The notes beneath the pieces were generated by a model, which did no database searches, was not told the DNA's origin, and saw nothing but the letters and a program-made list of their open reading frames with translations. A stretch of 64,000 nt of DNA, taken from positions 22,816,001-22,880,000 of the forward strand of contig NC_135805.1 of assembly GCF_964213995.1 (NCBI RefSeq), given 5' to 3'. Each line of letters begins with the position of its first letter. The stretch's first letter is position 1. Source of the stretch: Mustelus asterias. Taxonomy: Eukaryota. Below, one piece after another: positions 1-32,083 of the stretch. The position numbers and the translations under genes were made by a program.

Positions 1-2344
1 ATAGCTTTTCACAGAGCCAAGTCTTTTGTGCTCCCACCATTACAGTTTCTAGCTCTTAAATTAATGTTATCTAATTTAAGTCCATAATATACATGGTGAA
101 AAGCTGAGGTCACATTACAGATTCCTATGCAATGATATTTTACACATGTGGCAGTTCATTGCCTGGTGCTTGCAAAACTGAAGAAAAGGTATTGGGGTTG
201 CTAGTTTCCATGAAAAATCGGCAGATATTTTCTTCCAGGCCTCTTTAATTCCTGTATTTGGGGGAACTTGGCTGATTTGTGTGTTAGACTGGCTCTTCAG
301 AAATAACTTCCCCAATCCAGTTAATGATGAATGAATACCACTTTTCTGAAGTTTGATTATTCTACAAGTGAATCTTTGCTTGAAGTTTATAATCAATTCT
401 TTTGTAACAGCCAAGATATGGCCACGGTTCCTTTGACCGTGACAGTTCCCATCTCCTTCTGTTGGTTACGCAGTCCTTTGTGTGGTGGTAAATTCTCAGG
501 AGTTCAGTTGCTCGCATTGGTTCCTCCAGAAGCTTGCAGGTTTTTGTTGTGATAGAGAAGTTAAACCAGAGAGTACCATGACCTCCTGTTCTAGATTCCC
601 TGCAAGAGGAAACATCCACTCCATGTCTGCTTTGTCAGTCCCTGTTATCAGCTTGTACATCTCAGTTAGAGATCGCATTCTTCTGAAGGAGTATTGGCCT
701 CAACTGCCCAATCTCTCTTTGTAAGACAAACCTCTCATTTCTGGAATCAAATCTTGTGGTGTAGGAAACGCATTGCAAATTTGCCAGGGTACATTTAATG
801 GGACTGATCGGAAGAACATGTGAACAGTGTACCATTCAGCTGATAAAGCATGTTCCGCAATTCAGTTAGAACAGAGTCACACATGCTTCGATGCTTTTCC
901 AACATTGCATTAGTACCTGTGCACCAGTTTTTAGATTTGTGTACATGGATATCGAATTCCCTTTGCTCCCTTCCCCAGTGTTCATGAATAAATTATTCAT
1001 ATTTATCTATCGCAGATCCAAGTGCGTAACCTTACACTTGCTCACATTAAACTGTGTCATAGCTTTTCACAGAGCCAGTCTTTTGTGCTCCCACCATTAC
1101 AGTTTATAGCTCTTAAATTAATGTTATCTAATTTAAGTCCATAATATACATGGTGAAAAGCTGAGGTCACATTACAGATTCCTATGCAATGATATTTTAC
1201 ACATGTGGCAGTTCATTGCCTGGTGCTTGCAAAACTGAAGAAAAGATACTGGGATTGCTAGTTTCCATGAAAAATCGGCAGATATTTTCTTCCAGGCCTC
1301 TTTAATTCCTGTATTCAGATTTGGGGAACTTGGCTGATTTGTGTGTTAGACTGGCTCTTCAGAAATAACTTCCCCAATCCAGTTAATGATGAATGAATAC
1401 CACTTTTCTGAAGTTTGATTATTCTACAAGTGAATCTTTGCTTGAAGTTTATAATCAATTCTTTTGTAACAGCCAAGATATGGCCACGGTTCCTTTGACC
1501 GTGACAGTTCCCATCTCCTTCTGTTGGTTACGCAGTCCTTTGTGTGGTGGTAAATTCTCAGGAGTTCAGTTGCTCGCATTGGTTCCCCCAGAAGTTTGCA
1601 GGTTTTTGTTGTGATAGTTAAACCAGAGAGTATCCCCGAGATGTGAACCATTTCTGAAAATAAATCATTTGACTGGATCTGCAATGTATATAACATGCAC
1701 AGCACAACTGGCAAGTGTTTGTTGTTCTATGACTTGTCTTCAGAACCTGAGACACTTGTGAATCACTCCTGAGAGTTGCGGTGGCTGTGGGGGGCAGGTA
1801 GCGACACGATTGGTTGTGCTTTAGGAAAATTGGGACAGAGAAATGTTTCCTTAACTGAATGCATTCTCTCAGTCCTAAATAGCAAAGTTCATTGCTCGCT
1901 TAAGGTGCCTCTTTCTCAGATGTTTAAAATACACCTGATTTATGGCCATCTGAGCACACTGCTGGTAAATGGAATTAAAATGAATTGTGTACCATCGTTG
2001 AAACTAACTGAGGTTTTTATCGTGGAGGCCCAGTGCTTGCAGCATCTTCAACTTGACAGTCTTAAACAGTTTCTGAAAAAACTGGAAAGGGTGGAAATGG
2101 TAAATATCTGTGTGTGACTTCTACAAAGTTAAAGCTGCTTGCTTTGTGAGTTGATGTCTGATTCTAGAGATTAAATTGGAATTAAAGGCTGTGTCTTTTT
2201 GTGGCTTGAATGTTTGAAATTGTATCTGAGACACAAGACAGCTTCATAAATTAGTAAGTACTGTATCACACTATGTATTTTATGGAGTATATGTTTTTAC
2301 GGCCTCGACTCCCTTTTTGTGCCATTTCTCTATTCCTTGATCTC

Positions 2345-2640
2345 AGATGTTAGAATTTGAATTCAATTTTTTAAAACCTGGAATTCAAAATCTACTGATG
2401 ACCATGAAACCGTTGTCGATTGTCAGAAAAACCCGATCTGATTTGCTAATGCCCTTTCGGAAGGAAATCTGCCATCCTTACCCGGTGTGGCCTACATGTG
2501 ACTCCAGAGCCACAGCAACGTGGTTGACTCTCAACTGCCCTCTGAAATGGCCTAGCAAGCCACTCAGTTCAAGGGCAACGAGGGATGGGCAATAAATGCT
2601 GGCCAGCCAGTGACACCCATGTCCCACGAATGAATTTTTA
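2345..2640 (+). mobile_element. SINE family 2 fragment (GGAAGGAAATCTGCC...GGGATGGGCAATAAATGCTGG); also at +6230 and +13521
   Basis: Same body and tail as the dispersed copies at ~41010-44120, 46670-46900 and 49455-49687. Confidence 0.75.
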
Positions 2641-3065
2641 ATAAAAATGAAATATTTGGTTCTTGGGTTTCTTCTGGTTACCATTTTGGTACTTTGAGTT
2701 TAAGATTACTCACTGGGCATTACCTGTGCCATGTGACATTTTCTTAAACCTCCTTTTGACAATGGTATCACATGTCCAAGGAGATCATTGTTGATTTACA
2801 TTAAACTGTGACGATTTTTCAGAATGCACACCCCACCAGCGCACTTTGTGTTATCAGTATTGATTAGATTTGTTTTGAATGATAGCAGAATCTAGTCTGG
2901 CATTAAAATGATGGAACAAGCAAATGCGTGAAGTTTCTGTGCAATGGGGTGTCAGGGGTGGTGGGAGGGAAGGTTAGTGGAAGTTCTCAATCTTGTCACA
3001 TAAACGAATAGCTGTATCTCTTGAGCACAGTTTACTCTTTACACCAAAGCAGGGTTTCCAGAAGT

Positions 3066-3141
3066 CTTGCTGTGATGATTTGTTAAGGTTTCGCTGTTTT
3101 GCTGACAAACCTGACGACACATCCTTGGCTGTCTGAGCAAG
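3066..3141 (+). ncRNA. SNORD53: Box C/D snoRNA, SNORD53-type (copy 1)
   Basis: Box C GTGATGA at 3072-3078, box D CTGA at 3133-3136, terminal stem CTTGC/GCAAG. Guides GGTTTCGCTG and CCTTGGCTGT are complementary to 28S CAGCGAAACC and ACAGCCAAGG. The D+5 rule points to the C of ACAGC, the SNORD53 target (human Cm3848). WDR43 is the known host gene. Confidence 0.92.
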
Positions 3142-4039
3142 CTGGCTAATCCCTCGATTTGCTTTGGTGATGAGTAGCCATTCAGGGTTAATTTAAAACA
3201 AAATGATAACCTTGCAGATGAAATGATGATTGTGTTTGTGTGACTGCCTGCCTTCCAAAATTGGCCCCTTCATTACTGTTACCCCTTCACCCTAATGTGC
3301 AGAAAATAAATAATACTATTTTATGCTATGTTGGTGGTGTAATTTTAATTAGATTCAACCTCAGTCATGGGAAGTCTCCCTCAATACTCTTGACAATAAA
3401 ATAAAAGCAAAATATTGAGGTAAATAGAAAATTCTGGAAAAATTCAGCAGGTCTAGTAGCATCTGTGAAGAGAGAGAAACAGCATTAATGCTTCAAGTCC
3501 AACATCACTCTTCTTCCAAACTCTTAGACCATGTGGGCACAGCTATGATAGATAGCTCAGTGACGCATACAAGCTCTTGGGTGAAGAATGTTCCCTTGTG
3601 TGAGATAGCAGAGGGCTGCTTCCATCTATCGCATTGTGCCCCCAGTGGATCTTAAATTTGATGCAGGGCACAGAGAGGAAGAAATCAGCATAATTCGAAT
3701 GGGTTCTAGAGAAACAATTGGCTGCTTTATATTGGAATTCTGTAAAGTATATTAAGTGACACATTGGTTTTCCTGACCTTAGCTCCAGTTTGAAGAATTG
3801 CTGGTTTCATGACGGTGTTTGAGACTTTAAGCAGTTATATTGCAAGAGGTGCTTGGTCCAAGCAGGAGAAGACAAACTGCAAGCTAAACATGTCCAGGTG
3901 TAAAGTGATTAAAAATCAATGCTTAGATGCCCAGGGAGAAAGGAAGAGAGTTGAGCACTAAATCTAGCACGTAAAATCAATCTATTTGTAAGCGTCTTTG
4001 AAATGAAACCCTGTGTGAAAAAGTTCTGTTTAATAATAC

Positions 4040-4490
4040 TTGGAGTATTATGAACAACTGTGGGCACCAACCACACCTAATGTAGTGCATATTGATCTTG
4101 GAGGGAGCGCAGTGTAGATTTGCCAAAATGATGCCTGGACTCTGAGGATTAAGCTGAGGAGTGATTGTACAAACTCGGGTTGTATTCTAATGAATTTAGA
4201 AGTTTATGGGATGATTCAGTTGACATTTTCAAGATGTGGGGGGAGTAGATAATACTAAACTATTTCTGTTGACTGGAGAGTATAGGAATGTGTGGCGTTA
4301 TAGTATTAAAAATTAGAGCCACACATTTCAGTAGTGAAATCAGGAAACAGTTCAGTCAAAGAGTGATGGGAGTTTGGAAGGTCCCTCCACAAATGGCTAG
4401 ATCAGTTACTGAGGTTGATAGATTTTTAAAAAAATTGAGTTCTGCATCATTGAATGGTGAAAATGCTTGAGGGGGGCTAAATGACCTACA
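4040..4490 (+). mobile_element. Degenerate CR1 LINE 3' fragment (present in each tandem unit)
   Basis: Decayed LEY...QR RF..M...FSQRV motifs and a CR1-like 3' end. Confidence 0.65.
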
Positions 4491-4621
4491 TCCTCTCTCC
4501 CCAAGCCCCAGTTGAAAATTAATCAGAAGAATTTGTTAATTTCTATAGTGTTGCAGCTTTATCTACATGTGCAACGTTAAACCTAAAACACATGTTTCTT
4601 CCCCCCTCCCCTCCCAAACAG

Positions 4622-4742
4622 CAAATGGAAAGCTGAGAAAGGCAGCGTCAGTTGTCTTTGTCTCAGCCCCGATGGAAAGATGTTGCTATCAGCGGGCCGT
4701 GGCATCAAACTATGGGACCTGGAGACCAAAGAAGTGTACAGG
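4622..4742 (+). CDS. WDR43: WDR43 WD40 exon (equivalent to human exon 4), copy 1: [40 protein letters not shown]
   Basis: Pyrimidine tract + CAG acceptor, AGG|GTGAGT donor, 121 nt, phase 2 to 0. The peptide closely matches recalled vertebrate WDR43 ([40 protein letters not shown]). Confidence 0.93.
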
Positions 4743-5295
4743 GTGAGTACTTAAAACTCTGCTTCTGTGCAGTTTGCATTGAGTTGTAATTTATTTGTGC
4801 CACAAGTGGTTTCTAATTTGGAAACACGTTTTGTATAGTGGGAGGATGACCAGGCTCCTGCTTTCTTTCCACAAGTCCCTATATTTTCCTCTGCTTCAAA
4901 TATTAATTCAATGTTCCCTAAAAAGATCCTTCCCTCAACCAGTACCTGGGTCAAAGCATTCAGTCTTCCAACAGCCCTACTGAAAAGAAACATTTTTGCT
5001 CTTTTTGGCTTTGAATTGATGACCCCTGATCCTCGTCAACAAGAGAAAGCAATCTTATTCCATTGTTCTTATCAAAACTCTTCCTAGTTCCAAGCACCTT
5101 TTAATTCTCCTTTGCTTCCTGCTCCAGTGCAGTAAGTTCCATTAATACATCTCTCCATTGCTGTAGCTTCCAACTCTGGCAGAATCCTGACTGTCTAGTG
5201 GCTTTGCAATTTCCATAATGTGCTCAAAACTGCACGCAATAGAACCATTGCTGGCTTTGAATTTATCATTGCTTCTTTACTCCTAAAATTCACAT

Positions 5296-5945
5296 ATCAA
5301 TGCTCGATCACAAGCTGCCGTTGGGTTTACTACGAGAGGGTAAGCCCGTGCCACCAGTTGTCTCTGCGAGGGTACAGAGATGGGCCTTCTTGCTAGCTGC
5401 GTACAACTACTCCTTGCAGCATTGGCCAGGGAGGCAAATATCGAATGGGGGTGAACTCAGCTGCCTTCCTCTTCCGCAGACCATCCTGTCAACACTTGTA
5501 CAACAAGAAATAATGATGTTGCGCCTGCTCAAGACATTGCCGGCCTCAGGTACCCATCTGAAAACTTGAACTGAGAGAGACCCACTACTATCAAAAGTAC
5601 AAGTTTGGCATTATGATAAGTCAGAGCAACTCAGACCCTACCTATTGCATAGGACAGAGATATAGTCAGGGTGACGTGTTGTTGTGGGGGGCTCGTGTAA
5701 TAGTGCCACCCTGGGGTAATGGCTTTTGCTACAGGAGATGCACACCCTGGACAAAGTAGGATGAAAACATTGGCCCAAAGCTGTGTCAAGTGGCCAGGCA
5801 TTGCCAAAGGTCAAAAGAATGGTCAGCCAATGCTCAAGTCATTGCTCGAGCCCAGGAGTTATTGCCATCACCAGCATATATGGAAGTGGCCAGGTCGGTC
5901 ATGGTCCTGATTTGCACATAGACTTCGCAGGACCATATGTTCCTC
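5296..5945 (+). mobile_element. Degenerate Ty3/Gypsy pol fragment (RNase H end to integrase zinc-finger start); copies at 11526-12175 and 18817-19350
   Basis: DHK.L.LL...SARVQRWA.LL..YNY and HPGQSRMK.LA...V.WPGI motifs, broken by stops and frameshifts. Confidence 0.85.
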
Positions 5946-6542
5946 ACTCCTCATCCTAAATGCTGGTATCAGCGATGGGATCATGTCACTACCACATTGT
6001 GATTTTAAAAAACTGGGTCGTTAATGTCCTTTAGGAAAGGAAATCTGCCGGCCTTAGTTAGATGATTCCAGACTCTTGGTTTCTCCACATGCTGAGGTTT
6101 CCACTAAAACATCGAGCCCTAAAATACAAAAGAAAATGTTAAATCCTTTATCTGTCCTTTTTGGTAAGAAAACCTTGAGTTTGTTACCAACAGTATAAGT
6201 CCTAACACCAGGCCACACATCTGGACTAGTGGAACTGCCAAATCATGGAGTTGTTTTAGTTGAAAGTGCATGGAACAGATTAATTGGTGTGGTGAATCAG
6301 TGTTAAGTTGGTGAATTTAATTCAAAGATGTCTGCTGAAGGATAGTTTAAAAAAAGCATTTGAGCGCATGAACTGTTGAGCAAATTCCCTTTGACCTGGG
6401 TGTTTACATAATAGCAGTGAGCAAAGTGTTTTACAGTGGTAGAGTTTGGATATCAACCCTAACACATCCTCAGCGGAATGTGCACTTTGAAGTTGTCTTG
6501 AAATAGTTGCAGAAAATTAACCCTTGCATTATTGTACACAAC

Positions 6543-6985
6543 TAGGAGCAGGAGTAGGGCTTCGAGCCTGCTCCACCATTTCATGCGATCATGGCTGATT
6601 TAATCTCAGCCTCAACTCTACTTTCCTGTCCATTCATCATGGCCCTCCAAACCCTTACTAAAAATCTGTCGACCTCTTCCTTAAATTTACTCAATGTCCC
6701 GACATCCGCCACTCTCTCGGGTGGTGAATGCCACAGAGTCACGATCCTTTGAGAGAAGTAATTTTTCCTCATCTCTGTTTTAAATCTCCCTCCCCATATT
6801 GTAAAACCATGACCTCCTGCTCTAGATTCCCTGCAAGAGGAAACATCCACTCCATGTCTGCTTTGTCAGTCCCTGTTATCAGCTTGTACATCTCAGTTAG
6901 AGATCTCATTCTTCTGAAGGAGTATTGGCCTAAACTGCCCAACCTCTCTTTGTAAGACAAACCTCTCATTTCTGGAATCAAATCT
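6543..6985 (-). mobile_element. CR1 LINE 3' fragment (also 12773-13215)
   Basis: Minus-strand translation gives GLSYKERL..LG.YS and GGRFKTEMRKNYFSQRIV..W. Confidence 0.85.
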
Positions 6986-9295
6986 TGTGGTGTAGGAAAC
7001 GCATTGCAAATTTGCCAGGGTACATTTAATGGGACTGATCGGAAGAACATGTGAACAGTGTACCATTCAGCGATAAAGCATGTTCCGCAATTCAGTTAGA
7101 ACAGAGTCACACATGCTTCGATGCTTTTCCAACATTGCATTAGTACCCGTGCACCAGTTTTTAGATTTGTGTACATGGATATCGAATTCCCTTTGCTCCC
7201 TACCCCAGTGTTCATGAATAAATTATTCATATTTATCTATCGCAGATCCAAGTGTGTAACCTTACACTTGCTCACATTAAACTGTGTCATAGCTTTTCAC
7301 AGAGCCAGTCTTTTGTGCTCCCACCATTACAGTTTATAGCTCTTAAATTAATGTTATCTAATTTAAGTCCATAATATACATGGTGAAAAGCTGAGGTCAC
7401 ATTACAGATTCCTATGCAATGATATTTTACACATGTGGCAGTTCATTGCCTGGTGCTTGCAAAACTGAAGAAAAGGTATTGGGGTTGCTAGTTTCCATGA
7501 AAAATCGGCAGATATTTTCTTCCAGGCCTCTTTAATTCCTGTATTCAGATTTGGGGAACTTGGCTGATTTGTGTGTTAGACTGGCTCTTCAGAAATAACT
7601 TCCCCAATCCAGTTAATGATGAATGAATACCACTTTTCTGAAGTTTGATTATTCTACAAGTGAATCTTTGCTTGAAGTTTATAATCAATTCTTTTGTAAC
7701 AGCCAAGATATGGCCACGGTTCCTTTGACCGTGACAGTTCCCATCTCCTTCTGTTGGTTACGCAGTCCTTTGTGTGGTGGTAAATTCTCAGGAGTTCAGT
7801 TGCTCGCATTGGTTCCCCCAGAAGTTTGCAGGTTTTTGTTGTGATAGTTAAACCAGAGAGTATCCCCGAGATGTGAACCATTTCTGAAAATAAATCATTT
7901 GACTGGATCTGCAATGTATATAACATGCACAGCACAACTGGCAAGTGTTTGTTGTTCTATGACTTGTCTTCAGAACCTGAGACACTTGTGAATCACTCCT
8001 GAGAGTTGCGGTGGCTGTGGGGGGCAGGTAGCGACACGATTGGTTGTGCTTTAGGAAAATTGGGACAGAGAAATGTTTCCTTAACTGAATGCATTCTCTC
8101 AGTCCTAAATAGCAAAGTTCATTGCTCGCTTAAGGTGCCTCTTTCTCAGATGTTTAAAATACACCTGATTTATGGCCATCTGAGCACACTGCTGGTAAAT
8201 GGAATTAAAATGAATTGTGTACCATCGTTGAAACTAACTGAGGTTTTTATCGTGGAGGCCCAGTGCTTGCAGCATCTTCAACTTGACAGTCTTAAACAGT
8301 TTCTGAAAAAACTGGAAAGGGTGGAAATGGTAAATATCTGTGTGTGACTTCTACAAAGTTAAAGCTGCTTGCTTTGTGAGTTGATGTCTGATTCTAGAGA
8401 TTAAATTGGAATTAAAGGCTGTGTCTTTTTGTGGCTTGAATGTTTGAAATTGTATCTGAGACACAAGACAGCTTCATAAATTAGTAAGTACTGTATCACA
8501 CTATGTATTTTATGGAGTATATGTTTTTACGGCCTCGACTCCCTTTTTGTGCCATTTCTCTATTCCTTGATCTCAGATGTTAGAATTTGAATTCAATTTT
8601 TTAAAACCTGGAATTCAAAATCTACTGATGACCATGAAACCGTTGTCGATTGTCAGAAAAACCCGATCTGATTTGCTAATGCCCTTTCGGAAGGAAATCT
8701 GCCATCCTTACCCGGTGTGGCCTACATGTGACTCCAGAGCCACAGCAACGTGGTTGACTCTCAACTGCCCTCTGAAATGGCCTAGCAAGCCACTCAGTTC
8801 AAGGGCAACGAGGGATGGGCAATAAATGCTGGCCAGCCAGTGACACCCATGTCCCACGAATGAATTTTTAATAAAAATGAAATATTTGGTTCTTGGGTTT
8901 CTTCTGGTTACCATTTTGGTACTTTGAGTTTAAGATTACTCACTGGGCATTACCTGTGCCATGTGACATTTTCTTAAACCTCCTTTTGACAATGGTATCA
9001 CATGTCCAAGGAGATCATTGTTGATTTACATTAAACTGTGACGATTTTTCAGAATGCACACCCCACCAGCGCACTTTGTGTTATCAGTATTGATTAGATT
9101 TGTTTTGAATGATAGCAGAATCTAGTCTGGCATTAAAATGATGGAACAAGCAAATGCGTGAAGTTTCTGTGCAATGGGGTGTCAGGGGTGGTGGGAGGGA
9201 AGGTTAGTGGAAGTTCTCAATCTTGTCACATAAACGAATAGCTGTATCTCTTGAGCACAGTTTACTCTTTACACCAAAGCAGGGTTTCCAGAAGT

Positions 9296-9371
9296 CTTGC
9301 TGTGATGATTTGTTAAGGTTTCGCTGTTTTGCTGACAAACCTGACGACACATCCTTGGCTGTCTGAGCAAG
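9296..9371 (+). ncRNA. SNORD53: SNORD53-type box C/D snoRNA, copy 2
   Basis: Identical to 3066-3141. Confidence 0.92.
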
Positions 9372-10851
9372 CTGGCTAATCCCTCGATTTGCTTTGGTGA
9401 TGAGTAGCCATTCAGGGTTAATTTAAAACAAAATGATAACCTTGCAGATGAAATGATGATTGTGTTTGTGTGACTGCCTGCCTTCCAAAATTGGCCCCTT
9501 CATTACTGTTACCCCTTCACCCTAATGTGCAGAAAATAAATAATACTATTTTATGCTATGTTGGTGGTGTAATTTTAATTAGATTCAACCTCAGTCATGG
9601 GAAGTCTCCCTCAATACTCTTGACAATAAAATAAAAGCAAAATATTGAGGTAAATAGAAAATTCTGGAAAAATTCAGCAGGTCTAGTAGCATCTGTGAAG
9701 AGAGAGAAACAGCATTAATGCTTCAAGTCCAACATCACTCTTCTTCCAAACTCTTAGACCATGTGGGCACAGCTATGATAGATAGCTCAGTGACGCATAC
9801 AAGCTCTTGGGTGAAGAATGTTCCCTTGTGTGAGATAGCAGAGGGCTGCTTCCATCTATCGCATTGTGCCCCCAGTGGATCTTAAATTTGATGCAGGGCA
9901 CAGAGAGGAAGAAATCAGCATAATTCGAATGGGTTCTAGAGAAACAATTGGCTGCTTTATATTGGAATTCTGTAAAGTATATTAAGTGACACATTGGTTT
10001 TCCTGACCTTAGCTCCAGTTTGAAGAATTGCTGGTTTCATGACGGTGTTTGAGACTTTAAGCAGTTATATTGCAAGAGGTGCTTGGTCCAAGCAGGAGAA
10101 GACAAACTGCAAGCTAAACATGTCCAGGTGTAAAGTGATTAAAAATCAATGCTTAGATGCCCAGGGAGAAAGGAAGAGAGTTGAGCACTAAATCTAGCAC
10201 GTAAAATCAATCTATTTGTAAGCGTCTTTGAAATGAAACCCTGTGTGAAAAAGTTCTGTTTAATAATACTTGGAGTATTATGAACAACTGTGGGCACCAA
10301 CCACACCTAATGTAGTGCATATTGATCTTGGAGGGAGCGCAGTGTAGATTTGCCAAAATGATGCCTGGACTCTGAGGATTAAGCTGAGGAGTGATTGTAC
10401 AAACTCGGGTTGTATTCTAATGAATTTAGAAGTTTATGGGATGATTCAGTTGACATTTTCAAGATGTGGGGGGAGTAGATAATACTAAACTATTTCTGTT
10501 GACTGGAGAGTATAGGAATGTGTGGCGTTATAGTATTAAAAATTAGAGCCACACATTTCAGTAGTGAAATCAGGAAACAGTTCAGTCAAAGAGTGATGGG
10601 AGTTTGGAAGGTCCCTCCACAAATGGCTAGATCAGTTACTGAGGTTGATAGATTTAAAAAAAAATTGAGTTCTGCATCATTGAATGGTGAAAATGCTTGA
10701 GGGGGGCTAAATGACCTACATCCTCTCTCCCCAAGCCCCAGTTGAAAATTAATCAGAAGAATTTGTTAATTTCTATAGTGTTGCAGCTTTATCTACATGT
10801 GCAACGTTAAACCTAAAACACATGTTTCTTCCCCCCTCCCCTCCCAAACAG

Positions 10852-10972
10852 CAAATGGAAAGCTGAGAAAGGCAGCGTCAGTTGTCTTTGTCTCAGCCCC
10901 GATGGAAAGATGTTGCTATCAGCGGGCCGTGGCATCAAACTATGGGACCTGGAGACCAAAGAAGTGTACAGG
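10852..10972 (+). CDS. WDR43: WDR43 exon-4 equivalent, copy 2
   Basis: Identical to 4622-4742, with intact splice sites. Confidence 0.9.
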
Positions 10973-13036
10973 GTGAGTACTTAAAACTCTGCTTCTGTGC
11001 AGTTTGCATTGAGTTGTAATTTATTTGTGCCACAAGTGGTTTCTAATTTGGAAACACGTTTTGTATAGTGGGAGGATGACCAGGCTCCTGCTTTCTTTCC
11101 ACAAGTCCCTATATTTTCCTCTGCTTCAAATATTAATTCAATGTTCCCTAAAAAGATCCTTCCCTCAACCAGTACCTGGGTCAAAGCATTCAGTCTTCCA
11201 ACAGCCCTACTGAAAAGAAACATTTTTGCTCTTTTTGGCTTTGAATTGATGACCCCTGATCCTCGTCAACAAGAGAAAGCAATCTTATTCCATTGTTCTT
11301 ATCAAAACTCTTCCTAGTTCCAAGCACCTTTTAATTCTCCTTTGCTTCCTGCTCCAGTGCAGTAAGTTCCATTAATACATCTCTCCATTGCTGTAGCTTC
11401 CAACTCTGGCAGAATCCTGACTGTCTAGTGGCTTTGCAATTTCCATAATGTGCTCAAAACTGCACGCAATAGAACCATTGCTGGCTTTGAATTTATCATT
11501 GCTTCTTTACTCCTAAAATTCACATATCAATGCTCGATCACAAGCTGCCGTTGGGTTTACTACGAGAGGGTAAGCCCGTGCCACCAGTTGTCTCTGCGAG
11601 GGTACAGAGATGGGCCTTCTTGCTAGCTGCGTACAACTACTCCTTGCAGCATTGGCCAGGGAGGCAAATATCGAATGGGGGTGAACTCAGCTGCCTTCCT
11701 CTTCCGCAGACCGTCCTGTCAACACTTGTACAACAAGAAATAATGATGTTGCGCCTGCTCAAGACATTGCCGGCCTCAGGTACCCATCTGAAAACTTGAA
11801 CTGAGAGAGACCCACTACTATCAAAAGTACAAGTTTGGCATTATGATAAGTCAGAGCAACTCAGACCCTACCTATTGCATAGGACAGAGATATAGTCAGG
11901 GTGACGTGTTGTTGTGGGGGGCTCGTGTAATAGTGCCACCCTGGGGTAATGGCTTTTGCTACAGGAGATGCACACCCTGGACAAAGTAGGATGAAAACAT
12001 TGGCCCAAAGCTGTGTCAAGTGGCCAGGCATTGCCAAAGGTCAAAAGAATGGTCAGCCAATGCTCAAGTCATTGCTCGAGCCCAGGAGTTATTGCCATCA
12101 CCAGCATATATGGAAGTGGCCAGGTCGGTCATGGTCCTGATTTGCACATAGACTTCGCAGGACCATATGTTCCTCACTCCTCATCCTAAATGCTGGTATC
12201 AGCGATGGGATCATGTCACTACCACATTGTGATTTTAAAAAACTGGGTCGTTAATGTCCTTTAGGAAAGGAAATCTGCCGGCCTTAGTTAGATGATTCCA
12301 GACTCTTGGTTTCTCCACATGCTGAGGTTTCCACTAAAACATCGAGCCCTAAAATACAAAAGAAAATGTTAAATCCTTTATCTGTCCTTTTTGGTAAGAA
12401 AACCTTGAGTTTGTTACCAACAGTATAAGTCCTAACACCAGGCCACACATCTGGACTAGTGGAACTGCCAAATCATGGAGTTGTTTTAGTTGAAAGTGCA
12501 TGGAACAGATTAATTGGTGTGGTGAATCAGTGTTAAGTTGGTGAATTTAATTCAAAGATGTCTGCTGAAGGATAGTTTAAAAAAAGCATTTGAGCGCATG
12601 AACTGTTGAGCAAATTCCCTTTGACCTGGGTGTTTACATAATAGCAGTGAGCAAAGTGTTTTACAGTGGTAGAGTTTGGATATCAACCCTAACACATCCT
12701 CAGCGGAATGTGCACTTTGAAGTTGTCTTGAAATAGTTGCAGAAAATTAACCCTTGCATTATTGTACACAACTAGGAGCAGGAGTAGGGCTTCGAGCCTG
12801 CTCCACCATTTCATGCGATCATGGCTGATTTAATCTCAGCCTCAACTCTACTTTCCTGTCCATTCATCATGGCCCTCCAAACCCTTACTAAAAATCTGTC
12901 GACCTCTTCCTTAAATTTACTCAATGTCCCGACATCCGCCACTCTCTCGGGTGGTGAATTCCACAGAGTCACGATCCTTTGAGAGAAGTAATTTTTCCTC
13001 ATCTCTGTTTTAAATCTCCCTCCCCATATTGTAAAA

Positions 13037-15153
13037 CCATGACCTCCTGCTCTAGATTCCCTGCAAGAGGAAACATCCACTACATGTCTGCTTTGTCAGT
13101 CCCTGTTATCAGCTTGTACATCTCAGTTAGAGATCGCATTCTTCTGAAGGAGTATTGGCCTCAACTGCCCAATCTCTCTTTGTAAGACAAACCTCTCATT
13201 TCTGGAATCAAATCTTGTGGTGTAGGAAACGCATTGCAAATTTGCCAGGGTACATTTAATGGGACTGATCGGAAGAACATGTGAACAGTGTACCATTCAG
13301 CGATAAAGCATGTTCCGCAATTCAGTTAGAACAGAGTCACACATGCTTCGATGCTTTTCCAACATTGCATTAGTACCCGTGCACCAGTTTTTAGATTTGT
13401 GTACATGGATATCGAATTCCCTTTGCTCCCTACCCCAGTGTTCATGAATAAATTATTCATATTTATCTATCGCAGATCCAAGTGCGTAACCTTACACTTG
13501 CTCACATTAAACTGTGTCATAGCTTTTCACAGAGCCAAGTCTTTTGTGCTCCCACCATTACAGTTTCTAGCTCTTAAATTAATGTTATCTAATTTAAGTC
13601 CATAATATACATGGTGAAAAGCTGAGGTCACATTACAGATTCCTATGCAATGATATTTTACACATGTGGCAGTTCATTGCCTGGTGCTTGCAAAACTGAA
13701 GAAAAGGTATTGGGGTTGCTAGTTTCCATGAAAAATCGGCAGATATTTTCTTCCAGGCCTCTTTAATTCCTGTATTTGGGGGAACTTGGCTGATTTGTGT
13801 GTTAGACTGGCTCTTCAGAAATAACTTCCCCAATCCAGTTAATGATGAATGAATACCACTTTTCTGAAGTTTGATTATTCTACAAGTGAATCTTTGCTTG
13901 AAGTTTATAATCAATTCTTTTGTAACAGCCAAGATATGGCCACGGTTCCTTTGACCGTGACAGTTCCCATCTCCTTCTGTTGGTTACGCAGTCCTTTGTG
14001 TGGTAGTAAACTCTCAGGAGTTCAGTTGCTCGCATTGGTTCCTCCAGAAGCTTGCAGGTTTTTGTTGTGATAGAGAAGAAGTTAAACCAGAGAGTACCAT
14101 GACCTCCTGTTCTAGATTCCCTGCAAGAGGAAACATCCACTCCATGTCTGCTTTGTCAGTCCCTGTTATCAGCTTGTACATCTCAGTTAGAGATCGCATT
14201 CTTCTGAAGGAGTATTGGCCTCAACTGCCCAATCTCTCTTTGTAAGACAAACCTCTCATTTCTGGAATCAAATCTTGTGGTGTAGGAAACGCATTGCAAA
14301 TTTGCCAGGGTACATTTAATGGGACTGATCGGAAGAACATGTGAACAGTGTACCATTCAGCTGATAAAGCATGTTCCGCAATTCAGTTAGAACAGAGTCA
14401 CACATGCTTCGATGCTTTTCCAACATTGCATTAGTACCTGTGCACCAGTTTTTAGATTTGTGTACATGGATATCGAATTCCCTTTGCTCCCTTCCCCAGT
14501 GTTCATGAATAAATTATTCATATTTATCTATCGCAGATCCAAGTGCGTAACCTTACACTTGCTCACATTAAACTGTGTCATAGCTTTTCACAGAGCCAGT
14601 CTTTTGTGCTCCCACCATTACAGTTTATAGCTCTTAAATTAATGTTATCTAATTTAAGTCCATAATATACATGGTGAAAAGCTGAGGTCACATTACAGAT
14701 TCCTATGCAATGATATTTTACACATGTGGCAGTTCATTGCCTGGTGCTTGCAAAACTGAAGAAAAGATACTGGGATTGCTAGTTTCCATGAAAAATCGGC
14801 AGATATTTTCTTCCAGGCCTCTTTAATTCCTGTATTCAGATTTGGGGAACTTGGCTGATTTGTGTGTTAGACTGGCTCTTCAGAAATAACTTCCCCAATC
14901 CAGTTAATGATGAATGAATACCACTTTTCTGAAGTTTGATTATTCTACAAGTGAATCTTTGCTTGAAGTTTATAATCAATTCTTTTGTAACAGCCAAGAT
15001 ATGGCCACGGTTCCTTTGACCGTGACAGTTCCCATCTCCTTCTGTTGGTTACGCAGTCCTTTGTGTGGTGGTAAATTCTCAGGAGTTCAGTTGCTCGCAT
15101 TGGTTCCCCCAGAAGTTTGCAGGTTTTTGTTGTGATAGTTAAACCAGAGAGTA
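13037..15153 (+). repeat. ~1.06-kb internal duplication within the long units (13037-14096 and 14097-15153; equivalent pair at <1-575 and 576-1632)
   Basis: The same junction AACCAGAGAGTA|CCATGACCTCC occurs at 575 and 14096. It joins sequence that normally continues TCCCCGAG (1633) to sequence normally preceded by GTAAAA (6801). Confidence 0.9.
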
Positions 15154-16586
15154 TCCCCGAGATGTGAACCATTTCTGAAAATAAATCATTTGACTGGATC
15201 TGCAATGTATATAACATGCACAGCACAACTGGCAAGTGTTTGTTGTTCTATGACTTGTCTTCAGAACCTGAGACACTTGTGAATCACTCCTGAGAGTTGC
15301 GGTGGCTGTGGGGGGCAGGTAGCGACACGATTGGTTGTGCTTTAGGAAAATTGGGACAGAGAAATGTTTCCTTAACTGAATGCATTCTCTCAGTCCTAAA
15401 TAGCAAAGTTCATTGCTCGCTTAAGGTGCCTCTTTCTCAGATGTTTAAAATACACCTGATTTATGGCCATCTGAGCACACTGCTGGTAAATGGAATTAAA
15501 ATGAATTGTGTACCATCGTTGAAACTAACTGAGGTTTTTATCGTGGAGGCCCAGTGCTTGCAGCATCTTCAACTTGACAGTCTTAAACAGTTTCTGAAAA
15601 AACTGGAAAGGGTGGAAATGGTAAATATCTGTGTGTGACTTCTACAAAGTTAAAGCTGCTTGCTTTGTGAGTTGATGTCTGATTCTAGAGATTAAATTGG
15701 AATTAAAGGCTGTGTCTTTTTGTGGCTTGAATGTTTGAAATTGTATCTGAGACACAAGACAGCTTCATAAATTAGTAAGTACTGTATCACACTATGTATT
15801 TTATGGAGTATATGTTTTTACGGCCTCGACTCCCTTTTTGTGCCATTTCTCTATTCCTTGATCTCAGATGTTAGAATTTGAATTCAATTTTTTAAAACCT
15901 GGAATTCAAAATCTACTGATGACCATGAAACCGTTGTCGATTGTCAGAAAAACCCGATCTGATTTGCTAATGCCCTTTCGGAAGGAAATCTGCCATCCTT
16001 ACCCGGTGTGGCCTACATGTGACTCCAGAGCCACAGCAACGTGGTTGACTCTCAACTGCCCTCTGAAATGGCCTAGCAAGCCACTCAGTTCAAGGGCAAC
16101 GAGGGATGGGCAATAAATGCTGGCCAGCCAGTGACACCCATGTCCCACGAATGAATTTTTAATAAAAATGAAATATTTGGTTCTTGGGTTTCTTCTGGTT
16201 ACCATTTTGGTACTTTGAGTTTAAGATTACTCACTGGGCATTACCTGTGCCATGTGACATTTTCTTAAACCTCCTTTTGACAATGGTATCACATGTCCAA
16301 GGAGATCATTGTTGATTTACATTAAACTGTGACGATTTTTCAGAATGCACACCCCACCAGCGCACTTTGTGTTATCAGTATTGATTAGATTTGTTTTGAA
16401 TGATAGCAGAATCTAGCCTGGCATTAAAATGATGGAACAAGCAAATGCGTGAAGTTTCTGTGCAATGGGGTGTCAGGGGTGGTGGGAGGGAAGGTTAGTG
16501 GAAGTTCTCAATCTTGTCACATAAACGAATAGCTGTATCTCTTGAGCACAGTTTACTCTTTACACCAAAGCAGGGTTTCCAGAAGT

Positions 16587-16662
16587 CTTGCTGTGATGAT
16601 TTGTTAAGGTTTCGCTGTTTTGCTGACAAACCTGACGACACATCCTTGGCTGTCTGAGCAAG
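16587..16662 (+). ncRNA. SNORD53: SNORD53-type box C/D snoRNA, copy 3
   Basis: Identical to 3066-3141. Confidence 0.92.
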
Positions 16663-18142
16663 CTGGCTAATCCCTCGATTTGCTTTGGTGATGAGTAGCC
16701 ATTCAGGGTTAATTTAAAACAAAATGATAACCTTGCAGATGAAATGATGATTGTGTTTGTGTGACTGCCTGCCTTCCAAAATTGGCCCCTTCATTACTGT
16801 TACCCCTTCACCCTAATGTGCAGAAAATAAATAATACTATTTTATGCTATGTTGGTGGTGTAATTTTAATTAGATTCAACCTCAGTCATGGGAAGTCTCC
16901 CTCAATACTCTTGACAATAAAATAAAAGCAAAATATTGAGGTAAATAGAAAATTCTGGAAAAATTCAGCAGGTCTAGTAGCATCTGTGAAGAGAGAGAAA
17001 CAGCATTAATGCTTCAAGTCCAACATCACTCTTCTTCCAAACTCTTAGACCATGTGGGCACAGCTATGATAGATAGCTCAGTGACGCATACAAGCTCTTG
17101 GGTGAAGAATGTTCCCTTGTGTGAGATAGCAGAGGGCTGCTTCCATCTATCGCATTGTGCCCCCAGTGGATCTTAAATTTGATGCAGGGCACAGAGAGGA
17201 AGAAATCAGCATAATTCGAATGGGTTCTAGAGAAACAATTGGCTGCTTTATATTGGAATTCTGTAAAGTATATTAAGTGACACATTGGTTTTCCTGACCT
17301 TAGCTCCAGTTTGAAGAATTGCTGGTTTCATGACGGTGTTTGAGACTTTAAGCAGTTATATTGCAAGAGGTGCTTGGTCCAAGCAGGAGAAGACAAACTG
17401 CAAGCTAAACATGTCCAGGTGTAAAGTGATTAAAAATCAATGCTTAGATGCCCAGGGAGAAAGGAAGAGAGTTGAGCACTAAATCTAGCACGTAAAATCA
17501 ATCTATTTGTAAGCGTCTTTGAAATGAAACCCTGTGTGAAAAAGTTCTGTTTAATAATACTTGGAGTATTATGAACAACTGTGGGCACCAACCACACCTA
17601 ATGTAGTGCATATTGATCTTGGAGGGAGCGCAGTGTAGATTTGCCAAAATGATGCCTGGACTCTGAGGATTAAGCTGAGGAGTGATTGTACAAACTCGGG
17701 TTGTATTCTAATGAATTTAGAAGTTTATGGGATGATTCAGTTGACATTTTCAAGATGTGGGGGGAGTAGATAATACTAAACTATTTCTGTTGACTGGAGA
17801 GTATAGGAATGTGTGGCGTTATAGTATTAAAAATTAGAGCCACACATTTCAGTAGTGAAATCAGGAAACAGTTCAGTCAAAGAGTGATGGGAGTTTGGAA
17901 GGTCCCTCCACAAATGGCTAGATCAGTTACTGAGGTTGATAGATTTAAAAAAAAATTGAGTTCTGCATCATTGAATGGTGAAAATGCTTGAGGGGGGCTA
18001 AATGACCTACATCCTCTCTCCCCAAGCCCCAGTTGAAAATTAATCAGAAGAATTTGTTAATTTCTATAGTGTTGCAGCTTTATCTACATGTGCAACATTA
18101 AACCTAAAACACATGTTTCTTCCCCCCTCCCCTCCCAAACAG

Positions 18143-18263
18143 CAAATGGAAAGCTGAGAAAGGCAGCGTCAGTTGTCTTTGTCTCAGCCCCGATGGAAAG
18201 ATGTTGCTATCAGCGGGCCGTGGCATCAAACTATGGGACCTGGAGACCAAAGAAGTGTACAGG
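18143..18263 (+). CDS. WDR43: WDR43 exon-4 equivalent, copy 3
   Basis: Identical to 4622-4742, with intact splice sites. Confidence 0.9.
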
Positions 18264-19353
18264 GTGAGTACTTAAAACTCTGCTTCTGTGCAGTTTGCAT
18301 TGAGTTGTAATTTATTTGTGCCACAAGTGGTTTCTAATTTGGAAACACGTTTTGTATAGTGGGAGGATGACCAGGCTCCTGCTTTCTTTCCACAAGTCCC
18401 TATATTTTCCTCTGCTTCAAATATTAATTCAATGTTCCCTAAAAAGATCCTTCCCTCAACCAGTACCTGGGTCAAAGCATTCAGTCTTCCAACAGCCCTA
18501 CTGAAAAGAAACATTTTTGCTCTTTTTGGCTTTGAATTGATGACCCCTGATCCTCGTCAACAAGAGAAAGCAATCTTATTCCATTGTTCTTATCAAAACT
18601 CTTCCTAGTTCCAAGCACCTTTTAATTCTCCTTTGCTTCCTGCTCCAGTGCAGTAAGTTCCATTAATACATCTCTCCATTGCTGTAGCTTCCAACTCTGG
18701 CAGAATCCTGACTGTCTAGTGGCTTTGCAATTTCCATAATGTGCTCAAAACTGCACGCAATAGAACCATTGCTGGCTTTGAATTTATCATTGCTTCTTTA
18801 CTCCTAAAATTCACATATCAATGCTCGATCACAAGCTGCCGTTGGGTTTACTACGAGAGGGTAAGCCCGTGCCACCAGTTGTCTCTGCGAGGGTACAGAG
18901 ATGGGCCTTCTTGCTAGCTGCGTACAACTACTCCTTGCAGCATTGGCCAGGGAGGCAAATATCGAATGGGGGTGAACTCAGCTGCCTTCCTCTTCCGCAG
19001 ACCGTCCTGTCAACACTTGTACAACAAGAAATAATGATGTTGCGCCTGCTCAAGACATTGCCGGCCTCAGGTACCCATCTGAAAACTTGAACTGAGAGAG
19101 ACCCACTACTATCAAAAGTACAAGTTTGGCATTATGATAAGTCAGAGCAACTCAGACCCTACCTATTGCATAGGACAGAGATATAGTCAGGGTGACATGT
19201 TGTTGTGGGGGGCTCGTGTAATAGTGCCACCCTGGGGTAATGGCTTTTGCTACAGGAGATGCACACCCTGGACAAAGTAGGATGAAAACATTGGCCCAAA
19301 GCTGTGTCAAGTGGCCAGGCATTGCCAAAGGTCAAAAGAATGGTCAGCCCCCC

Positions 19354-19553
19354 NNNNNNNNNNNNNNNNNNNNNNNNNNNNNNNNNNNNNNNNNNNNNNN
19401 NNNNNNNNNNNNNNNNNNNNNNNNNNNNNNNNNNNNNNNNNNNNNNNNNNNNNNNNNNNNNNNNNNNNNNNNNNNNNNNNNNNNNNNNNNNNNNNNNNNN
19501 NNNNNNNNNNNNNNNNNNNNNNNNNNNNNNNNNNNNNNNNNNNNNNNNNNNNN
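19354..19553. other. Assembly gap (200 N, likely a placeholder of unknown true size)
   Basis: Run of exactly 200 N. Confidence 0.99.
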
Positions 19554-20362: not shown

Positions 20363-20426
20363 TGCTGCGTTAATGGTCAAGTGGCTAAAGGCAGTCTTCA
20401 CCCTACATGCCTCCTATCTGTCTACA
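20363..20426 (+). CDS. WDR43: WDR43 exon (Utp12/Dip2 domain, fifth from last): (S)AALMVKWLKAVFTLHASYLST
   Basis: TAG acceptor, ACA|GTAAGT donor, 64 nt. Matches recalled human [22 protein letters not shown]. Confidence 0.93.
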
Positions 20427-20578: not shown

Positions 20579-20712
20579 TTGCATCTGTTGACAGACCTGA
20601 AGCACATTCCAGTGGCTTTCTGGTTCCTTATTATTAAGATGCAAGATCAATTTCTTCGCGCTTTCTGTCTGCTCTTCTAGTGGCAGTTTGGATTGAATAG
20701 AGGAAAACATAC
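20579..20712 (+). ncRNA. SNORA31: Box H/ACA snoRNA, SNORA31-like, copy A
   Basis: Hairpin 1 stem TTGCATCT/AGATGCA, H box AGATCA at 20644-20649, hairpin 2 pocket CGCGCTT/TTGAA, ACA at 20707-20709 three nt from the end. Shares GCATC..TGA.AGACC, GATGCAA, GCGCTTTCTGTCTG and GATTGAAT with recalled human SNORA31. Confidence 0.85.
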
Positions 20713-21126: not shown

Positions 21127-21240
21127 CTGCCTAATCTTGTACCACAGCTCGGGGCCTTGTACCAGCTGATGGAGAGCAGGGTGAAAACGCTCCAAAAGCT
21201 TTCGCGGCTGCATGGCAAGCTCTTTCTTCTAGTTGCACAG
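21127..21240 (+). CDS. WDR43: WDR43 exon: [38 protein letters not shown]
   Basis: CTGCAG acceptor, CAG|GTAAGG donor, 114 nt, in frame with both neighbouring exons. Confidence 0.95.
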
Positions 21241-21669
21241 GTAAGGAGTGGATGTCTGGTGCTGTGGGCAGTTACTGAGTGCAAGTTATGCAGGGAATTG
21301 GAGGAGAATTCCAAAGATGGTATGCATATTTTACAACTGCCTGTGACTGTGAAAATCCACCTAACTTACATTTCCCTCACTGTTTTACTTGTATCATCAA
21401 ACACCACTTCACTTCTGAGGTGCAGGCTTATGATTCAGATATTTCATTTAGTGCCCCACAGTTGTATTTGGGGATCTCTCTGGCAAATGGCACTGGTAGG
21501 ATCTATATTGCTGTTCTATTGGTGCAACACACTGCCCCATCGGCAAGCTAAATGTATTCAGAATCATTCGTATGAATGTTAGAAACTAGAATTTCTTCTA
21601 AGTTGCTAAAGTTTGCCTTTGTTATGAGCATTCTTGTGAAACTGAGTAGCTGTGTTTGATATCCCTCAG

Positions 21670-23061: not shown

Positions 23062-23192
23062 GTGCATCTCTTGACAGACCTGAAGTTCAACACTAACTTT
23101 TTGGGTTTATTCACTGAGATGCGAGATCAAATTTCTTTGCGCTTTCTGCCTGCCCCTTTAGTGGCAGCTCAGATTGAATAGAGAATACACGT
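23062..23192 (+). ncRNA. SNORA31: Box H/ACA snoRNA, SNORA31-like, copy B
   Basis: TGCATCTC/GAGATGCG stem, H box AGATCA at 23124-23129, pocket TGCGCTT/TTGAA, ACA at 23187-23189. Confidence 0.85.
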
Positions 23193-30031: not shown

Positions 30032-30847
30032 AATGGTGAGAGATTGCAGAGCTGAGGTGCAGGGGGATCTGGGTTTCTTTGTGCATGAATCACAAAAGGC
30101 TAGTATAAAGATACAGCAAGTAATTAGGAAAGCTGAAAGAATGCTATCCTTTATTGTGAGGAGAATTGACTACAAAAGTAGGGAGGCTATGCTTCAGTTG
30201 TACAGGGCACTGGTGAGACCGCATCTGGAGTATTATGTACATTATTGGTCTCCTTATTTAAGGAAAGATGCAAATGCCTTAGAACAGTTCAGAGAAGGCT
30301 CACTAGAATTAATACCAGGACTGGATAAGTTGTCTTAAGAGGAAAGGTTGGAGAGTGTAGTTTTGTATCCACTAGTCTAGTTGAGTATGATGTGACTTGA
30401 TTGAAACTTTTAATGTTCTGAGGGGTGTTGATCGGGTGGATGTGGAGAGGATGCTTCCTCTTGTCAGAGAATGTAGAACTCGTCACTTATTCAAAATAAG
30501 GTGTTACCCGTTTAAGGCAGTGGCGAAGAGAAATGTTTTGTCTCAGGGTCGAGAATCTCTGGAACACTCTTCCTCAAAAAGCATGGAAGAGTCTTTGAAT
30601 ATTTTTAAGGCAGAGCTAGATAGATTCTTGATTAACAAGGGGGTGAAACGTTACCAGGAGTAGGCAGAATTGTGGGGTTGAGGTTGCAATCAGAACAGGC
30701 ATGACGTTTTGCATGGTGGAGCAGGTTCAAGCGCTGACTGGCCTACTGCTGCTTCTAATTCCTATGCAAGAAGATACTGTACAGTGCAAGGTATGTTGCA
30801 GTTTGCTGGTATTAACTCAAAAGTTATTTTATTTCTGACCCTTGTAG

Positions 30848-31948: not shown

Positions 31949-32083
31949 TTGCATCTATTGACAGACCTGAAGCCGATCTTTGTGGCTTTTTAGGTTCTTT
32001 TCCAGTTAGATGCAAGATTAAATTCCTCGCGCTTTCTGTTTGATGAATTAGTAGCAATTCAGATTGAATAGAGGAATACATAA
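31949..32083 (+). ncRNA. SNORA31: Box H/ACA snoRNA, SNORA31-like, copy C
   Basis: TTGCATCTA/TAGATGCA stem, H box AGATTA at 32015-32020, TTCCTC/GAGGAA stem, pocket CGCGCTT/TTGAA, ACA at 32078-32080. Confidence 0.87.

Follow-up and report, generated by a model that had tools for sequence, protein, structure and literature searches.

Introduction

Duplicated (unprocessed) pseudogenes arise in tandem segmental duplications with copy-number variation. The WDR43 locus of the shark Mustelus asterias that we describe here resembles this class in that introns and promoter were copied, the 3' exons are missing from the copy, inactivating lesions have accumulated, an intact paralogue lies adjacent, the junctions carry microhomology and the copies appear to have been mixed by recombination. 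It departs from a typical duplicated pseudogene in carrying intronic snoRNAs that may still be produced, one of which is tandemly repeated together with an exon.

This repeat has the same form as the SNORD115 and SNORD116 arrays of the non-coding SNHG14, where, according to the available portions of two reports, each unit pairs a non-coding exon with an intron that contains one C/D snoRNA and where copy number changes and gene conversion take place (PMC4742849, PMC12429941). An array in rat is likewise described as processed from tandemly repeated introns (cited in PMC12429941, available in part). Unlike these arrays, that of WDR43 has three copies rather than tens and is apparently not fixed. 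SNORD115 and SNORD116 are also orphan guides, whereas SNORD53, whose family we take to guide rRNA with a target in 28S, is a housekeeping rRNA guide, and its host here is a copy of a coding gene that has recently become a pseudogene. To our knowledge, imprinting is not expected in sharks.

A further parallel is with the SNHG and GAS5 hosts, which, in the parts of the literature available to us, share with the WDR43 copy the absence of a functional reading frame and the location of intronic snoRNAs between intact splice sites (PMC4233243, PMC13736004, PMC10234308). The spliced RNA of the WDR43 copy is predicted to be a substrate of nonsense-mediated decay (NMD), as known hosts are, and the uncoupling of snoRNA from host output by NMD has already been published, as far as the accessible text of that source goes (PMC4233243). 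In contrast to these hosts, the same snoRNAs still come from an intact WDR43, and the copy, a candidate host by its sequence, shows no sign of constraint. WDR43 itself is listed as a multi-snoRNA host in a paper that states the site of SNORD92 but not the canonical one of SNORD53 (PMC9941101), and the target terms sought in PMC8210301 do not occur there. Near-identical copies beside a gap and overlapping unplaced contigs are also what false duplications in vertebrate assemblies look like, by the available parts of two surveys (PMC9516828, PMC8081667); unlike those, this locus has a novel junction and copy-specific alleles in contigs from public runs, and a depth about three-fold that of the functional allele. 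Literature searches, with most subscription papers and supplements outside their scope, found nothing on this locus (WDR43 with SNORD53; WDR43 with shark duplication) and no report of a duplicated coding gene that had given rise to a snoRNA host.

Results

The window, by which we mean the whole analysed stretch of 64,000 nucleotides (NC_135805.1, assembly GCF_964213995.1, positions 22,816,001 to 22,880,000), contains three near-identical units, with self-BLAST identities of 99.45–99.81% across 5.3–7.3 kb and periods of 6,230 and 7,291 bp on exact-word diagonals. All genes, snoRNAs, units and junctions given below lie on the forward strand. An internal duplicate of 1,057 bp is what distinguishes the 7.3-kb unit from the 6.2-kb one. 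Units 2 and 3 open with a 545-bp segment A that is missing from unit 1 (1–5956). Unit 1 carries the internal duplicate C' (575–1632), which is ~97.5% identical to the C copy preceding it. Unit 2 (5957–12186, 6,230 bp) has no internal duplicate, and unit 3 (12187–19353) again includes C' (14096–15153) and ends at the very base at which the unplaced contig C1535 enters C-rich satellite. The junction between units 1 and 2 (5947–5957) contains a short templated insert and 1 nt of microhomology, and the junction between units 2 and 3 (12177–12187) is equal to it in sequence; at this locus 1–4 nt of microhomology was present at all five junctions examined and a short insert at two. Across the 4.2-kb D segment the units differ by 3–6 substitutions, and three of the four isolated unit-private ones are CpG transitions. 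An earlier note on this DNA had counted at least three units. Three is what is assembled, and additional units farther upstream are rejected because the left edge of the array lies 786 bases upstream of the window; the contig ends at 19353 against a 200-N gap, so that further units could be hidden on that side and the exact number holds for the assembled sequence.

Each of the three units carries one intact 121-nt WDR43 exon and one SNORD53, in agreement with that note, as exon comparison and Rfam matches both indicate. The copies of exon 4 (4622–4742, 10852–10972 and 18143–18263) are identical, retain their AG and GT ends and correspond to residues 163–202 of human WDR43 (PDB chain 7mq8_LK); the best vertebrate matches are named WDR43. 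With 1.3 substitutions expected, they have 0 (P 0.28), an observation that leans against neutrality. Splicing one exon 4 to the next in the functional frame does produce the stop that had been anticipated, at nt 13 of the second copy, but that stop is moot since the array-bearing copy meets its first stop already in exon 2, at codon 78.

The SNORD53-family C/D snoRNAs (3067–3140, 9297–9370 and 16588–16661) are likewise identical and match RF00325 (SNORD53/SNORD92) with 59.9 bits over model positions 1–78 in every unit, above the gathering cut-off of 46 bits; the assembly holds at least five matches to the family. Box C (TGATGA), box D (CTGA) and the D-box guide are intact in all three units, and a predicted flanking stem (3042–3169 around copy 1; −41.8 kcal/mol, with 3 of 200 shuffles equally stable) is identical across the units and the working gene. 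The C' box reads TGACGA in the array copies versus TGATGA in the working gene, one mismatch off the C' consensus. In total, pseudogene and working snoRNA differ by two substitutions where the local rate predicts 0.8; the pseudogene type has G at 3096 and C at 3115 of the window, the working type A and T. In this comparison, to which 74 nt give almost no power, the snoRNA copies appear free of any sign of selection; the excess over expectation and the loss of the C' consensus sit more easily with neutrality. A pattern search for the 28S guide target gave no match in the assembly, whose rDNA may be absent or skipped.

The gene copy that bears the array is dead. Its exon 1 has suffered deletions of 7 and 13 nt and an insertion of 1 nt (net −19 nt, a frameshift), its exon 3 contains a nonsense codon, and both exons lie directly upstream of the array on the same contig. 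These lesions are common to both truncated copies and are absent from the third, on the unplaced contig C1110. There, exons 1–12 of the working WDR43 are open and exon 4 and SNORD53 occur once each, and working 3' exons 14–18 lie in the window. The earlier suggestion of an array inside an essential gene, with one exon 4 chosen for protein, is thus unsupported, because exons 1–3 of the host are dead and the exon 4 and SNORD53 of the working gene, one of each, lie on another contig. What fits the lesions, the truncation and the intact paralogue is the alternative that the same note had offered, a non-functional partial duplicate.

The array is nested in a tandem segmental duplication of roughly 90 kb or more, in which the chromosome contig, C1535 and C1110 match collinearly at 97–99% across ~70 kb and which includes introns and upstream sequence alongside WDR43. 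Its right breakpoint in intron 15 (21577–21580) is joined to a point ~70.4 kb upstream of the window; this head-to-tail junction has 4 nt of microhomology and is the same in both unplaced contigs, the order of the contigs being putative. Across the 200-N gap (19354–19553) the scaffold connects the pseudogene's 5' half with a WDR43 copy that runs from exon 14 onward and has exons 16–18, so the order from array to exon 14 crosses the gap and omits exons 5–13. Exon 14 (20363–20426) is found also at the start of C1535, exon 15 (21127–21240) at the starts of both unplaced contigs, and a SNORA31-family H/ACA match in intron 14 (20579–20712) lies within the large duplicated unit and recurs on both. 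The exon 5 region occurs once in the assembly, and in a stricter first look exons 5–12 matched C1110 only; deleted, purged and unassembled sequence would look the same here. Exon 13 was absent from all three contigs in a forward-strand peptide scan at six of ten residues, and a search of the assembly for contigs that extend C1110 or bridge the gap found none.

C1535 represents a second dead WDR43 copy with a single exon 4/SNORD53 unit, and the existence of such a sister copy is readily accommodated by neutral variation. Its many private differences do not support the view that it is simply chimeric between the other two contigs, but a site of recombination or switching likely lies between the 48th and 60th kb of this contig. 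C1535 also carries a 13-kb upstream duplicate that, like the 1,057-bp intronic duplicate in the array, is devoid of snoRNA. The region therefore duplicates readily without snoRNAs, again as a neutral reading would have it.

Of the 21 public sequencing runs listed, none of them recorded as RNA, four were examined, one of which (X1) may be the assembly's own sample; runs from other organisms with a small share of matches carry no weight here. The unit junction, missing from the unduplicated order on C1110, is crossed gap-free by contigs of two of the four runs, X4 (91 letters beyond) and X1 (30 letters, borderline). None of the contigs listed spans two units, and none of those listed for run X9, which comes from another study and covers 13 of 30 bins at depth 2–3, lies at the junction. 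The run evidence on junctions is confined to this one, the signal at the C–C', U–B and satellite junctions being swamped by SINE copies. In X1 the D segment has a depth of 72.9 versus 24.2–26.7 for the functional alleles, about three-fold, and the allele marking the internal duplicate a depth of 37.8. Contig-mean depths from this one run, as distinct from copy number proper, correspond to four pseudogene units (about 4–5 per diploid) and two functional alleles with the array in one dose, the best of six models (RMSE 7.4 versus 9.4–26.6), and the artefact models fit worst; a single dose accords with neutrality. With junction-crossing contigs in two of four runs and this depth fit, the array is real and an assembly artefact, which the earlier note had allowed for, is unlikely. 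The junction occurs in two samples that carry different codes, so the array may be common, and this recurrence weighs somewhat against a purely neutral history.

The promoter of the dead copy is barely eroded. Its CpG observed/expected ratio is 0.71–0.72 versus 0.76, three of four CCAAT-like and three of four GC-box motifs are kept after about 1.1–1.6% divergence, and CpG loss is not directional (26 versus 29 changes); one of four promoter repeat modules has been lost. Such retention of the CpG-island promoter and its motifs fits continued use and is harder to square with neutrality. The splice sites of exons 1–4 are retained too; by its sequence, the copy has no functional reading frame and a snoRNA inside a spliceable intron. 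Transcription of the dead copy may continue, since its promoter, splice sites, C/D boxes and terminal stem survive, and the copy may release extra SNORD53, several per transcript, while the transcript is degraded.

Discussion

We propose, at a probability of about 0.7, that this locus is best explained by nested neutral structural variation in a duplicated (unprocessed) pseudogene. The initial event, visible in the contigs themselves, was the tandem segmental duplication of ~57 kb of upstream DNA together with WDR43 exons 1–15, which left exons 16–18 to one copy only. The coding capacity of the truncated copy was then lost through the exon-1 indels and the exon-3 nonsense codon that it now carries. 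Subsequently, a 6.2-kb piece of introns 3–4 with SNORD53 and exon 4 was tandemly duplicated, as the unit junctions record; a microhomology-type event may have started the array, and unequal crossing-over and gene conversion may have expanded, contracted and mixed it into the three-unit and one-unit versions. The dead copy may be transcribed, in which case the exon-2 stop would mark its spliced RNA for NMD and any extra SNORD53 would be a by-product without a role under selection. The intact gene supplies the protein and the SNORD53 that is required.

It is also possible, but unlikely, that we are seeing a nascent non-coding snoRNA host, in which the dead copy is transcribed and kept for its dose of SNORD53 (and SNORA31) without WDR43 protein, a SNORD115/116-like array at birth. 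The retained CpG island, most promoter motifs and splice sites would suit this idea, as would the intact boxes, guide and stem in every unit, the creation by each unit of a new intron with one snoRNA, the early stop that would expose the spliced RNA to NMD like that of known hosts and the recurrence of the junction in two samples. Against it stand the single array dose in X1, the one-unit sister copy, the departure of the pseudogene snoRNA from the C' consensus without excess conservation, the snoRNA-free duplicates nearby and the report, in its available portion, that the majority of snoRNA copies in vertebrates lack expression (PMC10234308). At the opposite end, a real duplicate that is epigenetically shut off and yields no extra snoRNA would differ from our preferred explanation in the expression step only. 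The lost promoter module and the lack of a native 3' end in the truncated copies are compatible with complete silence, but the intact CpG island without directional CpG loss speaks against it, and we consider it quite improbable.

A false tandem duplication built at the contig end from haplotypes or collapsed repeats also seems very unlikely. The locus is badly assembled: the array stops at a contig end and gap, exon 13 is missing from three contigs of which two are unplaced, the copies are 99.5–99.8% identical and no listed contig reaches across two units. An artefact would nevertheless have to account for a junction that is absent from C1110 yet recovered in two runs, for the depth of the internal-duplicate allele, for unit differences that are CpG-type substitutions and not homopolymer slips, and for the poor fit of its depth models. 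Least credible of all is an array in the working gene, with one exon 4 picked for protein and extra SNORD53 made via exon 4–exon 4 splicing. The scaffold does place the array between exons 1–3 and 14–18, and such splicing does yield a stop; however, the upstream exons 1 and 3 on the same contig are frameshifted or nonsense-bearing, an intact gene has one exon 4, and the scaffold order depends on the gap at which exons 5–13 drop out.

Returning to neutral variation in a duplicated pseudogene, the repeat is probably copy-number variation of that kind, shaped like a miniature SNORD115/116 array. As such it matters little beyond annotation, where the point to note is that the scaffold fuses the 5' half of a pseudogene to the working 3' half, with working exons 1–12 on an unplaced contig. 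A more consequential version, which we regard as doubtful on the sequence, is that the dead copy is transcribed from its CpG-island promoter and spliced from exon 4 to exon 4, giving up to four extra SNORD53 from one haplotype with no extra protein, a non-coding host with a SNORD115/116-style array at birth and still segregating. Because pseudogene and working snoRNA differ at two letters, the extra snoRNA can be counted directly. Should the dead copy prove to be expressed, it would be a recent case, natural and polymorphic, of the way in which non-coding snoRNA hosts and repeated-intron arrays can start out, and would form a natural dosage series for a single rRNA guide.

Results

Self-comparison of the window (G000:C5:22816001-22880000, from an assembly totalling 3.68 Gb in 5,313 contigs) resolves three tandem units with periods of 6,230 and 7,291 bp and mutual identities of 99.45-99.81%, much as the earlier note described them. 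Its further claim, that every unit holds one intact WDR43 exon and one SNORD53, is confirmed. The copies of exon 4 (121 nt, starting at 4622, 10852 and 18143) have AG/GT ends and the same sequence in all three units, correspond to WDR43 residues 163-202 and match shark WDR43 proteins at 95-100%; each unit also carries an identical RF00325 match of 59.9 bits. The array starts 786 bases before the window (negative window coordinates denote places to its left), with no additional copies found upstream on C5, the chromosome scaffold, and on the right it stops where the contig itself ends, at a run of 200 N. The exon has five matches in the assembly, three in the window and one on each of two unplaced contigs, C1535 and C1110, and RF00325 has at least five, at the same places.

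Placing exons with shark WDR43 protein (assembly search and local tblastn) shows exons 1-12 to be open on C1110; C5 and C1535 each carry exons 1-4, and exons 14-18 follow the gap on C5. Extra 3' exons (14-15 or 15) lie at the starts of C1535 and C1110, which share one junction, from intron 15 (21580) to -70418, with 4-nt microhomology; exons 16-18 occur in one WDR43 copy only, and exon 13 was not found in C5, C1535 or C1110. This exon distribution and common junction identify the locus, as read from sequence, as a tandem segmental duplication that took in WDR43 exons 1-15 and about 57 kb of DNA upstream. The simplest contig order would be C5-left, C1535, C1110, C5-right; a search for contigs bridging the breaks between these pieces found none. 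At 19354-19553 the scaffold builds a chimeric WDR43 from a dead 5' half, a gap and a 3' half, and the public protein P0015 (110,665-bp contig) ends at 509 residues, after exon 12, so that both assembly and annotation of WDR43 need repair. Introns 1-12 of the working gene (C1110; L011-L017, L023-L027) contain a single RF00325 match. In human, WDR43 is host to more than one snoRNA (PMC9941101); any others in this genome may be in the part around exon 13 that is missing from the assembly.

By its sequence, the array host is a WDR43 pseudogene. Exon 1 of C5 and C1535 has in common deletions of 7 and 13 nt and an insertion of 1 nt, and in exon 3 both have TGG changed to TGA, with an additional 4-nt duplication there in C5 alone; C1110 is free of all these lesions. 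The immediate stop predicted earlier for exon 4 spliced to exon 4 does arise when the functional frame is used, at nt 13 of the second copy, but is irrelevant here, as the dead copy read in spliced order already stops within exon 2, at codon 78. Alignment of dead with working copies gives 56-64 substitutions over about 5,170 bases of the array unit and 262 over 16,913 of the gene body.

The working contig C1110 has segment order U A B C D E and continues beyond, where A is 5957-6501, C is 6806-7862 and D carries the snoRNA and exon. On C5 the order is U B C C' D E, A B C D E, A B C C' D, gap; on C1535 it is U B C D and then a C-rich satellite (L010:3206-3597, period about 16-18 nt) that terminates the contig. 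C1535 passes into this satellite, probably the cause of the gap in the window, at the exact base where C5 ends. Because C1535 combines a deletion marking unit 1 with the satellite ending unit 3, the contig resembles the outcome of a contraction, or else a collapsed array. The unit junction, a short templated insert with 1-nt microhomology, occurs twice in the assembly, both times within the window. Between units, segment D differs by 3, 3 and 6 substitutions; two of the differing letters sit at a T-run/A-run border, and three of the four remaining unit-private substitutions are CpG transitions. In relative age, the units are roughly one-tenth as old as the split from the working gene. Shared changes among C and C' copies form a mosaic. 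Upstream of the second dead copy, C1535:35232-61836 (L021, L022, L007, L008) is a further tandem duplicate, 97.5-98.8% alike; C1535 is nearer C1110 across much of its first 28 kb and nearer C5 from 60 kb onward, a shift that could reflect either a recombinant between tandem copies or an assembly switch.

The dead copy retains its start codon region, all splice sites of exons 1-4 and its CpG island (observed/expected 0.71-0.72, against 0.76 in the working copy), with CpG changes balanced at 26 versus 29. Three of four motifs that we take to be CCAAT-like and three of four presumed GC boxes are kept in its promoter. Boxes C and D and the D-box guide of its snoRNA are unaltered; of the two letters that differ from the working copy, one makes C' TGACGA instead of TGATGA. 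The snoRNA ends 1,481 nt from the 3' splice site, against 2,192 nt in the working gene, and a long predicted stem encloses it in both. According to PMC10234308, the main drivers of snoRNA copy expression are the terminal stem, how well the boxes are conserved and whether the host is expressed, and most annotated copies are reported as unexpressed. Release of SNORD53 is plausible if the host is transcribed. Substitution counts show no sign of constraint, with 2 against 0.8 expected in the snoRNA and 0 against 1.3 in exon 4, numbers too small for a test. Around the 5' side of the snoRNA, at 2927-3115, dead and working copies are separated by a cluster of 8 substitutions plus an indel where 2.0 are expected (P 0.001 for one window among about 22; unpolarised), and could be an old allele or a conversion tract.

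Introns 14, 16 and 17 of WDR43 each hold a SNORA31-family H/ACA match (20579-20712, 23062-23192 and 31949-32083; 51.6-70.3 bits, cut-off 40), the first also present in both dead copies. The human member of this family sits in TPT1, so the SNORA31 host would differ in sharks. Long open frames resembling LINE endonuclease-reverse transcriptases, which we take to be CR1/L2-type, lie at 56204-58918, 25998-27131, 28493-30169 and 47508-48866; one has 905 residues and several nearby copies are 96-99% identical, which suggests recent activity. Two LTR-retroelement-like frames at L033:6278-8604 presumably represent reverse transcriptase/RNase H and integrase, and 63072-63620 is a long (CACT)n and (CT)n microsatellite tract.

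Discussion

We propose that the array is a neutral nested duplication within a WDR43 pseudogene, possibly leaking extra SNORD53 (probability roughly 0.7). The earlier note had set the array in or beside an essential gene, with a non-functional partial duplicate as fallback; the fallback holds. An array in the working gene is scarcely credible, given the broken exons 1 and 3 of its host and the open exons 1-12 on C1110. The other fallback, an assembly artefact, was to be judged by depth and by sequence spanning unit junctions, and the contigs of public runs speak to both. Logan contigs of four of 21 runs (X1, X3, X4, X9) were compared with one unit, 1633-7862; X1, X3 and X4 belong to one study, whose samples may or may not be different animals. 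A contig of X4 (sample S3; 5320-6047) crosses the unit junction ungapped. One of X1 (sample S1; 4429-5986) is borderline, reaching 30 letters into segment A under a 31-letter rule for crossing, and stops where a junction-specific contig must end; in X3 a contig breaks off at the branch point, 5946. Among the contigs listed, none lies at the junction in X9 and none covers two units in any of the four runs. X1 depths are 54.7, 78.5, 95.6 and 72.9 for segments A, B, C and D, 37.8 for the allele marking three assembled C copies, 24.2 of 87.9 for a side branch with 7/7 C1110-type letters at 2927-3041, and 26.7 for a second at 6379. The best of six genotype models that we chose, an array in one dose with one single-unit dead copy and two working alleles, gives an RMSE of 7.4, against 9.4 for the runner-up and 18.8 and 26.6 for artefact models, although the depth of a contig does not measure copy number, the nine figures depend on one another and X1 is possibly the assembly's own sample. 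An artefact is therefore disfavoured and very unlikely; the tandem junction is well supported, and a count of three units is plausible.

Selection for a nascent snoRNA host appears unlikely: constraint is without sign, and neighbouring tandem duplicates lack any snoRNA. These lie close by (1,057 bp, and about 13 kb on C1535), and the array therefore requires no adaptive cause. A wholly silent duplicate seems quite improbable to us. That the dead copy is expressed and would release several SNORD53, selected or not, is possible, if doubtful.

A partial search of the literature, supplements excluded, found no paper that treats this locus or describes a snoRNA host arising by duplication of a coding gene. 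In SNORD115/116, non-coding exons form an array that hosts intronic snoRNAs (PMC4742849), and arrays of this type undergo copy-number change and gene conversion (PMC12429941); the array locus is similar in shape but differs in size and apparent fixation. By its sequence, the dead copy resembles non-coding, NMD-targeted snoRNA hosts (PMC4233243, PMC13736004), for which a separation of snoRNA from host output has already been proposed; to belong to that class it would have to be expressed. On every feature tested, the locus in this shark fits an ordinary duplicated pseudogene with nested copy-number variation.
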